From contig JBKDWF010000055.1 in the NCBI GenBank assembly GCA_046338525.1, positions 21,276 through 85,275 on the forward strand: a stretch of DNA of 64,000 nt, given 5' to 3'. This stretch comes from Holosporales bacterium (lineage in GTDB: Bacteria > Pseudomonadota > Alphaproteobacteria > JAJTHO01). Of this stretch, positions 1 through 3,033 are shown one piece after another. Position 1 is the first letter of the stretch; each line of letters opens with the position of its first letter. The notes beneath the pieces were generated by a model, which worked only from the letters and a program-made list of their open reading frames with translations, had not been told where the DNA came from and did not search any database. A program made the position numbers and the translations under genes.

Positions 1-27
1 AAACACATAGAAAGCACGCGCACTGAA

Positions 28-1740
28 TTGAGAACATCCAACTTAAAATACCCCTTGCTTGAGGAATTTGCTAAACAGATTAGACAGTTAACTGGATTTG
101 GCGCAGGCGAAATGCAATCCTTTGTCCGCATGCAAAAAGCCAACTTTACTATACCAACAAAGGCATGGAACAGGCTAACGCAAGCTATGCCTATGTTAAA
201 AGCAGCTCACAAAAGCAACAGACCACCAACCATGTTTGAATTTTGTTCTATAGTGCAAAATGATATTTATACAAACCTGCGGGATTGGTTTAGGGCACTT
301 GATATAACTGATAACACTACCACCTTCCTTTCAGGCGACAGTCCACATCCTTTATTTGACGCACAGGGTGAACCGACTGTGGTTCTGCCCTTGGTGAAGA
401 AGCCCGTTAGCTTCAAGGATATCTTTGACAATACCGAGGCACTGCAAAACAATCCTAATGCCATTCCTCAAGTTAAAAACAATTTAGACAATGATTTAAA
501 ACAGCTGTACATGCTGCAAATCGATTACCTCAAACTGTATCAACTGCGCAATGGCATTCGAGACGGATCGATCCCATGGGATAAAACAAAAGAACCAACA
601 CTTACCGATCTCCTGGAAAAGCACGGTTGTTTTATGAAGGATGATTTCATTGATCCTTCGTTGACAGGCCAGCCAAAAGAAGCACGGTGCCCATCTTGGA
701 CAACCATGACCCCTGAAAAATGGAAACTACTTTATAAAGATTTAAAAGCCATTGATCCCGATCTGAGCCTTGACAAGCCTATTCCCTTTTTTGATCCAGA
801 AAACAATCCCACTATTGTACCAAGAATGCACCAGCAAGGCATCAAACTTGGGTATCAACACCTCCCAGAAGCCGAGTCTGGTGAAATCCCTCTTGTAGAA
901 ATGTATACAGCCGTCAAGGGGCGTCATCTGTGGTTTGCTTTTGATGGATATAACGTAGAGCAAGCTGGTCTAATGTATTATGGTAACCGTTCAGGTAACC
1001 GCCTGACCTGCTTTCACGATCCGAATCAGTATACCAATGCAATGAATAAAGAATTTTGTATAAAAAATGGCATTTGCACAGAAAAGAGCTATGAGGAAGT
1101 CAAAAAAAATCCTTTTATTGCACAACATTTTCAAGTCACAGCTAAAGGCACCGAGCAAGTTAAAAATTCTTTAAACTCTTTTGCTGAGTACCGCTATCGT
1201 AGCGGGCTTCTTGCCAAAGGACAAAGTGCACGAGAACATGTGGAAAGCGTGCTGGAAAATATGCGAAATGTCTGGGGTGGGTTAGCAAGAACGCTAGAAC
1301 TAGTAGTTTCCGACAAAGAACCAAAGGTTCCTAATCTTTTACATTACATCAGAATCATTATTGGAAAATGGATTCGTATTGTCTTTCCAATGTATCGATC
1401 CGTTGATCGCCCATCTATACGATCACAGCAAATAAATTTAACTAGAACAACATTTCCAAACAGCACTTTCATGACAAATTCTTTTGAACCCGATGTGGGA
1501 GATTTGTTCAATCGTAATGCAGCAAGCGTTTATTCAGTATATGATCCAAAAGCAAAACGACACACCGGGCGAACAAAAGTAAAAGCGATTTATAATACGA
1601 ATGACCCGAATAAACCCGTTAATGCAGCTACTATTTTGGAGGCATGGAAAGACCGCACCGATGTTTTTCCACAACAAGAGGATTATATGAAAGCCAATAA
1701 TATTACAAATTTTCGGCGTGCAACGGTCGCGACGCATTAA
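28..1740 (+). CDS. Hypothetical protein, 570 aa; AT-rich, no recognisable domain; possibly 5'-partial because the frame is open to window position 1 and the first start is TTG
   Basis: Long ORF with coherent codon usage; markedly lower GC than flanking cysG; no in-frame stop upstream of TTG at 28; first ATG in frame at 112. Confidence 0.5.
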   Translation: MRTSNLKYPLLEEFAKQIRQLTGFGAGEMQSFVRMQKANFTIPTKAWNRLTQAMPMLKAAHKSNRPPTMFEFCSIVQNDIYTNLRDWFRALDITDNTTTFLSGDSPHPLFDAQGEPTVVLPLVKKPVSFKDIFDNTEALQNNPNAIPQVKNNLDNDLKQLYMLQIDYLKLYQLRNGIRDGSIPWDKTKEPTLTDLLEKHGCFMKDDFIDPSLTGQPKEARCPSWTTMTPEKWKLLYKDLKAIDPDLSLDKPIPFFDPENNPTIVPRMHQQGIKLGYQHLPEAESGEIPLVEMYTAVKGRHLWFAFDGYNVEQAGLMYYGNRSGNRLTCFHDPNQYTNAMNKEFCIKNGICTEKSYEEVKKNPFIAQHFQVTAKGTEQVKNSLNSFAEYRYRSGLLAKGQSAREHVESVLENMRNVWGGLARTLELVVSDKEPKVPNLLHYIRIIIGKWIRIVFPMYRSVDRPSIRSQQINLTRTTFPNSTFMTNSFEPDVGDLFNRNAASVYSVYDPKAKRHTGRTKVKAIYNTNDPNKPVNAATILEAWKDRTDVFPQQEDYMKANNITNFRRATVATH

Positions 1741-1746
1741 CCCCCC

Positions 1747-3033
1747 ATGCCCCTCTTTCCCATCTCCCCCCTCCCTGTCCTCCTCCTCACCCCTTCCGCG
1801 GCACACCCCAAGGCGGAGACGCTGCGGGCGTTGAACCTGAACCCCCTGCACCACGCGGCATTGCCCAGCGATCTCACACCCTTTCGCCTGGCGGTGATTA
1901 GCCTGGGCAGTGAGGAGGAGGATGCACAGGCGGCGGAGGCGTGCCGGGGTGCAGGGCTGCTGGTCAACGTGGTGGACAGGCCGCACCTGTGCGATTTCAT
2001 TTTTCCGGCGGTGATTCAGCGCGGGGATGTGCAGGTGGCCGTGTCCACGGGGGGGCGGGCGCCGGTGCTGGCGCGGTGGCTGAAGAACAGGATTGCCGCC
2101 AGCCTGCCGTCGGGCATTGGCCGGGTGGCGGCGTTGGGGGAGAAACTCAAAGACACCCTGCGCCGGGCGTTTCCCGACATGCAAACGCGCAAGAATTTCT
2201 GGGAAGACCTGCTGGATAGCGGCTTTACCGAGGCGGTGTCCGGGGTGTCTGAGGCTGAGGCGGAGCAGGCGTTTCTAAGGGCCATTGAGGATAAAACCGC
2301 GAGCCGGGGCAGCGTCGCCCTCATCGGCGCGGGGCCGGGAGACCCGGATTTGCTGACCTTTCGGGCGTTGCGCCTGCTTCAGGCGGCGGATGTGGTGGTG
2401 TACGACCGCTTGGTCACGCCGGAGGTGCTGACCCTCGCCCGCAAGGACGCGGAAAAAATTTATGTGGGCAAGGCGCGAGCGCACCACTGCGTGCCCCAGG
2501 GGGAGATTAACCAGACGCTTGTGGATCACGCGCTGGCGGGCAAGAGGGTGGCGCGGCTCAAGGGCGGGGATCCGCTGCTGTTTGGCCGGGCGGGGGAGGA
2601 AATGGCGGCCCTGAAAGCCGCCGGGGTGCCGTTTGTCATCGTGCCCGGCGTAACGTCGGCCAGCGCGGCGGCGGCGGCGCTGGAGACCTCCTTAAGCCAC
2701 CGGGATCACGCCCAGGCCGTGATGTTTCTGACCGGCCACCGCCGGGACAACGGCGAACTGGTATTACCCTGGGCGGCCTTGGCCAGCGGCCAGCAAACCC
2801 TCGTTCTTTATATGGGCATTCAAAGCGCGGCGGCGGTGGCGCAGGGGCTGCTGAAACATGGCCTCTCCCCCGATACCCCGGCGGCGGTGGTGGCCCAGGC
2901 ATCCTGGCCGGGGCAGTCTATTATACGGTGTTGCCTTGGGAATCTCGCCACGACGCTGGAACGGGAACAACCAAGTAATCCAGCATTGTTGATTATTGGA
3001 ACGGTCTTGACAGACGATGCGGCAAGGCGTTAA
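1747..3033 (+). CDS. cysG: Siroheme synthase-like CysG (N-terminal precorrin-2 dehydrogenase/ferrochelatase-like domain + C-terminal uroporphyrinogen-III C-methyltransferase)
   Basis: C-terminal SUMT motifs (GAGPGDPDLLT, VVYDRLV, LKGGDP, FGRAGEE) and N-terminal CysG-B-like region (VAVSTGGRAPVLARWLKNRI); glycine-rich NAD loop replaced by LLLTPSAA. Confidence 0.8.
   Translation: MPLFPISPLPVLLLTPSAAHPKAETLRALNLNPLHHAALPSDLTPFRLAVISLGSEEEDAQAAEACRGAGLLVNVVDRPHLCDFIFPAVIQRGDVQVAVSTGGRAPVLARWLKNRIAASLPSGIGRVAALGEKLKDTLRRAFPDMQTRKNFWEDLLDSGFTEAVSGVSEAEAEQAFLRAIEDKTASRGSVALIGAGPGDPDLLTFRALRLLQAADVVVYDRLVTPEVLTLARKDAEKIYVGKARAHHCVPQGEINQTLVDHALAGKRVARLKGGDPLLFGRAGEEMAALKAAGVPFVIVPGVTSASAAAAALETSLSHRDHAQAVMFLTGHRRDNGELVLPWAALASGQQTLVLYMGIQSAAAVAQGLLKHGLSPDTPAAVVAQASWPGQSIIRCCLGNLATTLEREQPSNPALLIIGTVLTDDAARR

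Follow-up and report, generated by a model that had tools for sequence, protein, structure and literature searches.

The 64-kb window analyzed here, the whole stretch of DNA under study, comes from a clade of uncultured Holosporales bacteria known from metagenomes only. It opens within a large, AT-rich gene that ends just before a GC-rich cysG, and it is this large gene, its product and its boundary with cysG that concern us. We consider it probable that whole alleles of the large gene are exchanged by recombination in the flanks, that at least two allele types coexist in one species, and that the slot they occupy is an old one. An earlier, sequence-only reading had seen in the abrupt change of composition a horizontally acquired gene inserted next to a core gene or, alternatively, a junction prone to slippage at its runs of C. 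Composition alone would be misleading here: the sharpest boundary in guanine-plus-cytosine (GC) content in the window appears to belong to a long-standing polymorphic locus shaped by recombination and not to a foreign insertion.

The two allele types are best seen by comparing contigs assigned to the same species as the window. Several of these carry, in place of the window-type gene (P0130 type), a gene encoding 1248 amino acids (aa) (P0125 type) whose product has ~20% aa identity to the window protein and which has no nucleotide similarity to the window gene. Its surroundings are nearly those of the window. Flank identities, measured with blastn, reach 97.4% over 2.66 kb (L008/L009) and 99.2% over 9.7 kb (L013) on the right, and from 3 kb onward, as far as 11.4 kb, L013 differs from the window by 0.2-1.1% per kb. 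The right-flank match to these contigs, and to that of a second species (L001, 82%), begins exactly at window position 1736, with no match upstream. On the left, identity between L018, which carries the window type, and L008, which carries the P0125 type, is 98.6% over 2.3 kb and continues through ATGGTT, the first two codons of the large gene, beyond which the two sequences diverge completely. The nonhomologous stretch coincides with the open reading frame (ORF): it opens at codon 2 and closes at the last codon or stop. We found the P0130-type arrangement in the 92-kb contig of the metagenome-assembled genome (MAG) at NCBI, in L018 (JGI), in L019 and in L005 (ENA), and the P0125-type arrangement in L001 (Logan), L008 (ENA), and L009 and L013 (both JGI); in L008 and L001, left flank, gene and right flank all lie in one contig. 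The contigs carrying the P0125-type allele are 2-23 kb in length. Samples in which the species occurs include JGI 3300042295, 3300061647 and 3300059636, SRR31534977 and ERZ28593710. From the identity of the flanks, the P0130/P0125 dimorphism appears to lie within a single species.

Because all of these data are metagenomic, and because L018, L019, L011, L012 and L014 end or begin near the junction, one could suppose that assemblers joined unrelated sequences at the low-complexity C/T tract and that the dimorphism is an artefact. We regard this as extremely improbable, as several assemblies, made independently from different samples by different pipelines, run across each arrangement, and contig breaks at the junction are what strain polymorphism yields in assembly graphs. 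Five independent contigs break at window positions ~1738-1843: L018 ends 64 nucleotides (nt) past the stop codon, L019 ends within it, and L011, L012 and L014 start at or within ~100 nt 3′ of the junction. Strain polymorphism, which fragments assemblies, would give rise to such breaks. One of them, L014, is ~98.7% identical to the window from position 1737; the 19 nt that precede the match (within its positions 1-28) resemble neither allele. The contig could carry a third allele or have arisen by deletion.

The slot itself is conserved well beyond the species. Related loci were traced from the closest CysG proteins to the contigs that carry their genes, and each of the five lineages so recovered has a member of the large-gene family immediately 5′ of cysG, in the same orientation. 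These are L008, L009 and L013, of the same species as the window (flanks 97-99% identical); L001, whose CysG is 92% identical in aa to that of the window; L002 (65%); L003 and L004 (64%); and L006 and L007, in which a 5′ fragment of cysG matches at 77% of nucleotides over 158 bp. In each lineage the large gene lies 10-24 GC points below its cysG, with values of 0.42 vs. 0.66, 0.465 vs. 0.57, 0.475 vs. 0.58, and ~0.43 vs. a GC-rich cysG. The neighborhood is otherwise fluid: the left neighbor varies by genus, being mraZ in one and a Fer4_20/Pyr_redox_2 protein in others, and the genes 3′ of cysG also vary between genera, so that the pair formed by the large gene and cysG is the sole constant unit. 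In L002 (6708-7146) and L003 (5369-6054), two or three small Flp/Fap pilin-like genes follow cysG and replace the cupredoxin and FTR1 genes found there in the window. From this conservation we conclude that the slot 5′ of cysG is ancestral to the clade, and therefore that the sharp boundary is not the mark of an insertion. Likewise, since GC is low in all alleles of all lineages, low GC is a trait of every allele in the family rather than the relic of a donor.

The compositional contrast is real and was correctly described by the sequence-only reading. With only 6 nt between them, the large ORF and cysG differ in GC (0.411 vs. 0.657) and in GC at third codon positions (GC3; 0.369 vs. 0.783), a GC3 step of 0.414 that is the largest between adjacent genes in the window, the next largest being 0.215. 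Among the 47 long ORFs taken for the composition ranking, the large ORF has the lowest GC3 (z = -2.0), and its GC is low at all three codon positions. Mean GC of the window is 0.509, and GC3 is heterogeneous from gene to gene, ranging from 0.37 to 0.78; by the same measure cysG is a stronger compositional outlier than the large ORF. A second low-GC outlier, at window positions 35761-37923 on the minus strand, encodes a 720-aa PAS-domain protein (GC 0.433, GC3 0.397), and low-GC genes are thus present elsewhere in the core region. As far as it was scanned with Pfam, the remainder of the window is core chromosome, with secY, adk, fusA, rpoN, a ribosomal protein gene, gdh and thrS, as well as a penicillin-binding protein 2 (PBP2)-type transpeptidase with a RodA/FtsW-family protein.

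Such a composition, together with the scarcity of homologs, a handful of metagenomic proteins, and the abrupt break in nucleotide homology to close relatives, is what one would expect of a foreign gene recently acquired, as an island or cargo, from an AT-rich donor and placed between mraZ and cysG. We nevertheless consider this very unlikely. A homolog that is AT-richer than its cysG fills the slot in every related lineage, and strains differ in which allele they carry, not in whether the gene is present. The boundaries coincide with start and stop codons and not with intergenic DNA. We found no transfer RNA (tRNA) gene in the window and no integrase or transposase gene at the borders of the large gene, where the neighbors are mraZ and cysG; in L018, direct or inverted terminal repeats or a target-site duplication around the gene were likewise absent beyond short repeats at chance level. 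The insertion proposed from the sequence alone is therefore not supported. The gene keeps its position and its low GC in relatives, which is the first part of what that reading had itself named as grounds for refutation.

The history of the alleles differs from that of the sequence around them. L001 and L008 belong to two species and both carry the P0125 type; their large genes are 91.8% identical in nucleotides and 92% in aa, and both flanks are ~82% identical. Synonymous divergence (dS) between them is 0.26 for the large gene, with a ratio of nonsynonymous to synonymous divergence (dN/dS) of 0.16. The corresponding values are 0.32 and 0.15 for cysG, 0.59 and 0.05 for mraZ, 0.88 and 0.08 for rsmH, 1.12 and 0.15 for the cupredoxin gene, and 1.81 and 0.09 for FTR1. 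The allele genealogy is discordant with that of the flanks, dS being 0.26 in the large gene and 0.6-1.8 in genes further out, and the segment comprising the large gene and cysG appears to have a more recent shared history in these two species than the genome around it. The dN/dS of 0.16 within the P0125 type indicates that the large gene is constrained and functional. The window allele is closest to P0122 (39%), which comes from a distant lineage, and shares ~20% with the other allele of its own species. Part of the earlier proposal of horizontal acquisition thus survives: the gene does move horizontally, and one allele type crosses a species boundary, with the qualification that it does so as allelic replacement and not as insertion.

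A different explanation of the same break in homology is that the two types arose where they stand, by extremely rapid evolution under positive selection, as in an arms race, and that the boundary marks where selection acts. The exact coincidence of the divergent stretch with the ORF is in keeping with this, as is the low identity of family members (18-39%) between lineages whose CysG proteins are 64-92% identical. We find it quite unlikely, however, because the P0125 type is constrained between two species (92% aa identity, dN/dS 0.16, dS below that of the flanks), and because the ~0.5% flank divergence of L013 leaves too little time for ~80% aa divergence and a length difference of ~150 residues. 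The greater closeness of the window allele to one from a distant lineage than to its conspecific counterpart points the same way. Taken together, allele discordance and the low flank divergence favor old, exchanged allele classes over hyper-evolution in situ.

If alleles are exchanged through their flanks, the flanks should bear traces of recombination, and they do. The density of single-nucleotide polymorphisms (SNPs) relative to same-species contigs is 7% in positions 1736-1835, 2-5% and patchy through most of cysG, and 0.4-0.6% beyond ~3.5 kb. The SNPs fall into mosaic blocks, and some sites, 1758 and 2115 for example, violate the four-gamete test; cysG thus appears to be a recombination mosaic among strains. 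One contig (L011), otherwise 99.85% identical, carries 10 clustered SNPs of its own in positions 1852-1938, a pattern that resembles a short tract brought into cysG by recombination.

Base composition changes in step with distance from the large gene on both sides. In L018 (positions 1-10169), GC3 rises toward it from argS (0.41) through murE (0.47), ftsI (0.50), ftsL (0.56) and rsmH (0.65) to mraZ (0.74); it falls to 0.37 in the large gene, reaches its regional maximum of 0.78 in cysG immediately to the right, and then declines to 0.57-0.69 (0.57 and 0.62 in the first two genes) and finally to ~0.5 (window positions 1747-20740). The Spearman correlation of GC3 with distance is -0.62 on the left (p = 0.054) and -0.81 on the right (p = 0.0004). 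An association of recombination with higher GC3 has been published for bacteria (PMC4450053). We hypothesize that the GC3 peak reflects GC-biased gene conversion in the recombining flanks, set against AT-biased mutation inside the large gene. The locus resembles the published association (PMC4450053) in that GC3 is highest in the recombining flanks, cysG and mraZ, and lowest in the gene that presumably does not recombine between types, and differs from it in being a gradient at a single locus.

The full extent of the large gene had to be sought upstream, by exact-protein look-ups. Frame 1 is open from the first base of the window to the TAA stop, and although the first possible start within the window is a TTG at position 28, the ORF runs off the window edge, as the sequence-only reading had allowed. 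It corresponds to the C-terminal 580 codons of the NCBI protein MFN9323188.1, annotated as a 970-aa "hypothetical protein" in a Holosporales MAG. An intact copy, called as 1156 aa, is present in L018, which is 100% identical to window positions 1-1804; window positions 1-1740 correspond to 11732-13471 of that contig, and L019 is also 100% identical. A start common to other family members (MVKTITPARS...) would give a protein of ~1100 aa.

The family to which this protein belongs appears to be small, confined to Holosporales and uncharacterized. Scanned exhaustively with HMMER, 1.84 billion cluster representatives yielded nine members, six of them at E < 1e-10, with lengths of 1067-1248 aa apart from one fragment of 723 aa. 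Members are colinear over most of their length at 18-39% identity and contain conserved blocks; alignments among alleles are colinear at 21-27% identity, with E values of 1e-17 to 1e-74. When a word-indexed protein database was queried with the ORF and the family alignment, the source protein alone matched, and genome and metagenome contig collections from which the source MAG is absent gave no match to the protein or to the exact junction sequence. No paralog was found elsewhere in the 64 kb or in related loci.

The impression from the sequence alone that the protein has no recognizable motif was borne out by every resource searched (Pfam, NCBIfam, PDB, PADLOC, PHROGs and Foldseek). Pfam, NCBIfam and PDB sequences, the last including a profile search, gave no match to the protein or its family; in Pfam nothing fell below E = 0.03 for any member, and no eukaryote-like or known effector domain was seen. 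PADLOC returned no match at E <= 1 for seven members, which argues against likeness to known anti-phage defence proteins, and PHROGs had no match for the family. AlphaFold gave a predicted local distance difference test (pLDDT) score of 34 from the single sequence and 57.7 from an eight-sequence alignment; the latter, our best model, is mostly alpha-helical. Searched with Foldseek against PDB, it produced nothing below E = 0.05, only nonsignificant helical-repeat matches. We infer that the protein is soluble and largely alpha-helical; no Sec signal and no transmembrane or other hydrophobic segment was detected in the family. Five of the seven full-length members aligned end in NN[IV]xxF with a net-basic tail at the extreme C terminus; P0126 shows it weakly, and P0127 and P0129 lack the NN. 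In the contig that encodes P0127 (L010), Nextera adapter sequence (CTGTCTCTTATACACATCTGACGCTGCCGACGA) closes the sequence at ~3585-3618, and the 3′ context of that gene is therefore artefactual.

Table 1. Features at and around the boundary between the large gene and cysG; positions refer to the window unless a contig is named.
Feature	Position	Strand	Description
Large gene, 3′ part	1..1740	+	580 codons; P0001/P0130 allele type; GC 0.41, GC3 0.37; 5′ part upstream of the window
Right homology breakpoint and junction	1736..1746	+	Last codon CAT, TAA 1738-1740, CCCCCC 1741-1746
Polypyrimidine tract	1741..1797	+	52/57 C/T (91%); spacer plus cysG codons 1-17 (MPLFPISPLPVLLLTPS)
cysG	1747..3033	+	428 aa; GC 0.657, GC3 0.783; most GC-rich gene and highest GC3 in the window (z = +3.4)
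Degenerate N-terminal Rossmann segment of CysG	1747..1900	+	Glycine-rich NAD motif lost; internal deletion of ~22 residues
Cupredoxin	3076-3399	+	Syntenic within the same genus only
FTR1 iron permease	3421-4266	+	Syntenic within the same genus only
Same-frame junctions	window 1738-1749; L002 5303-5326; L003 3986-4003; L006 7557-7583		Stop-free spacers of 6/18/12/21 nt

The pyrimidine-rich sequence that begins at the junction is unusual in the window and is nonetheless ordinary coding sequence. Positions 1741-1810 are 84% C/T, and the segment is unique in the window: its core (Table 1) has a score of 37, the highest among 200 shuffles being 29, and nowhere else in the 64 kb does pyrimidine content reach 85%. 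The tract is conserved in L001, L008 and L013. Comparison with L001 shows 13 differences in the first 34 cysG codons, 8 of them at third positions, with conservation of the ATG and of gene length, which supports the view that the tract is translated. It codes for Pro/Leu/Ser-rich sequence belonging to the degenerate Rossmann segment of CysG, and the run of C and T arises because the codons for Pro, Leu, Ser, Phe and Thr that make it up end in C. An RNA element within it was considered and rejected (fold z = 0.55, no Rfam match). Around the junction, tandem repeats of note were absent, and promoter-like and terminator-like sites were no commoner than in shuffles.

The two C6 runs described from the sequence alone, at 1741-1746 and 1766-1771, are present, in a window that contains 14 C6 and 6 G6 runs. 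It is highly improbable that slippage at them makes the junction phase-variable, turning cysG, or a fusion of the large protein with CysG, on and off. Two observations could be read in favor of such a switch: the first run is shortened to 5 C in L014, and in the window and three other lineages the large ORF and cysG lie in the same frame, separated by one stop codon. The first run, however, is the spacer between stop and start, so that a change in its length alters neither ORF; it is short, is one of 20 such runs, and has 6 C in seven of the eight contigs that span it. The second run, which is coding, is broken in the other haplotype by substitutions and not by changes of length. The claim of a slippage-prone junction is accordingly not supported. 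As for the shared frame, seen in four lineages with spacers of 6, 18, 12 and 21 nt, it needs only an in-frame ancestor (a 1-in-3 chance) and point mutations. A fusion of the large protein with CysG, considered on the strength of that frame, was set aside, since an in-frame ancestor and migration of start and stop by point mutation suffice. The shared frame may be inertia from that ancestor, or may hint at a former or readthrough fusion.

Neither the 6-nt spacer nor the ends of the alleles, which differ, contain a Shine-Dalgarno sequence. With so short a spacer and no such site, cysG is probably cotranscribed with the large gene and translated by termination-reinitiation. An alternative in-frame cysG start, TTG at 1831, is preceded by GGAG.

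The cysG product is itself of interest. It matches the siroheme synthase family NF007922 with a score of 490.8 against a cutoff of 400, and contains an intact methyltransferase domain (PF00590, 3e-54) as well as the central and dimerization regions (PF14824 and PF10414). In these domains it is like the family; it is unlike it in missing the first ~60 profile positions and in the replacement of its glycine loop. The NCBIfam match starts at residue 35, which corresponds to profile position 62 of 450, and the Pfam NAD_binding_7 match is restricted to profile positions 46-104. In an alignment with gammaproteobacterial CysG, residues 1-35 (MPLFPISPLPVLLLTPSAAHPKAETLRALNLNP) run colinearly along the canonical beta1-Gly loop-alphaA, with GGGEVA replaced by TPSAAH and ~22 residues deleted further on. 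A 5′-truncated cysG with a novel N terminus was dropped as an explanation, because this alignment shows a colinear but degenerate Rossmann remnant. The NAD loop is altered in every Holosporales CysG seen (TPSAAH, KTELLE, GDYQKL, and IGAGAE in L002, which keeps GxG), and the copies have ~16-22 residues deleted with the methyltransferase domain intact. The cysG of L006 changes from AT-rich to GC-rich after its degenerate N-terminal ~50 codons. The relatives of these proteins outside the clade are all gammaproteobacterial, at ~48% identity. The NAD-dependent precorrin-2 dehydrogenase activity of the window CysG is, on this evidence, doubtful, and the degenerate NAD-binding site across the clade may hint at altered siroheme synthesis.

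The age of the allele classes suggests that selection, balancing or frequency-dependent, acts on a protein facing a host or a competitor, and our best guess, offered with low confidence, is that the large protein is a secreted or exposed host-interaction factor under balancing selection. An effector-like role, named in the sequence-only reading, may apply. The exchange of alleles probably proceeds as follows. Recombination between types inside the ORF would be blocked by excessive divergence, and recombination would be frequent in the conserved flanks, mraZ on the left and cysG on the right; whole alleles would then be exchanged as cassettes, across species too. GC-biased conversion might in addition raise GC3 in the flanks, and AT-biased mutation might prevail in the nonrecombining core. 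A more elaborate proposal, which we think unlikely, is that the large gene is a determinant of endosymbiont compatibility or host interaction with trans-species, balanced, idiomorph-like alleles, that its flanks are hotspots with GC-biased conversion, and that its product has a functional partnership with a CysG lacking NAD binding, through translational coupling or a readthrough fusion.

Several observations weigh against our interpretation or parts of it. All sequences compared are metagenomic contigs, and membership in the same species was judged from flank identities of 97-99.5% and not from whole genomes. Synteny with cysG is not universal, in that one family member, P0123, is not beside it; in its contig (L020, 2202-2471), the truncated 723-aa gene is followed by a RecN-like N terminus whose frame runs into unrelated sequence, and the contig may be chimeric or may come from a different AT-rich lineage. 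The window copy may also not be intact. The source MAG annotates the large gene as two ORFs of 157 and 970 aa (ACK59C_05345 and ACK59C_05350; the corresponding part of L018 is 10001-10560), and the 157-aa product stops where the intact protein of L018 has Glu, resembling a nonsense change near codon 158 of the called 1156-aa ORF, or about codon 100 counted from the likely true start. This premature stop upstream of the window may mean that the window copy is a pseudogene, or it may be an error in the MAG consensus. As regards a host-facing role, no domain, fold or structural match indicates the function of the protein, and neither the 64 kb, whose ORFs scanned with Pfam are housekeeping genes, nor the related loci showed a secretion system; Flp pilin genes adjoin cysG in L002-L004. 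The GC3 gradient rests on one locus with unpolarized substitutions, and could come from codon-usage selection or chance.

Even so, tested as an inserted island, as a defence gene or as a phase-variable tract, the locus behaves as none of these. It offers what is likely a clean natural example of the exchange of whole ORFs between deeply divergent versions of a gene, in an unexplored lineage of uncultured Holosporales. With breakpoints mapped to the start and stop codons and a GC3 gradient on both sides, it is well suited to tests of GC-biased gene conversion in bacteria. Should the large protein meet the host, its allele classes would be candidate determinants of host range or compatibility.

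Among known systems, the closest in arrangement are the minimal mobile elements of Neisseria, in which nonalignable alternatives occupy one slot flanked by core genes, with mosaic flanks and without mobility genes or terminal repeats. They undergo allelic replacement by homologous recombination in the flanking genes (PMC3787668, PMC3082526). The locus described here likewise has one slot with nonalignable alternatives, flank recombination that extends between species, and mosaic flanks. It differs in that the alternatives are remote homologs of one family (~20% identity) and the replaced segment is exactly one ORF, and in its occurrence in uncultured Holosporales known from metagenomes only. 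A second comparison is with exposed proteins whose allele classes are under balancing selection, such as meningococcal fHbp and TbpB, the pneumococcal PspA families and the recombining wsp of Wolbachia. Identity between classes in these proteins is usually 40-70%, and conserved termini are kept. The large gene shares with them discrete, deep allele families, purifying selection within a family, sharing across species and raised diversity in the flanks, whereas its types differ over the whole ORF (~20% identity) and in length (~1100 vs. 1248 aa), and its exposure is putative. Finally, fungal mating-type idiomorphs, which are usually nonhomologous and control mating, provide a structural analogy only: dissimilar sequences between sharp, conserved flanks with no internal recombination are common to both, and a role like that of a mating type, for which there is no evidence in the large gene, is where the analogy ends.

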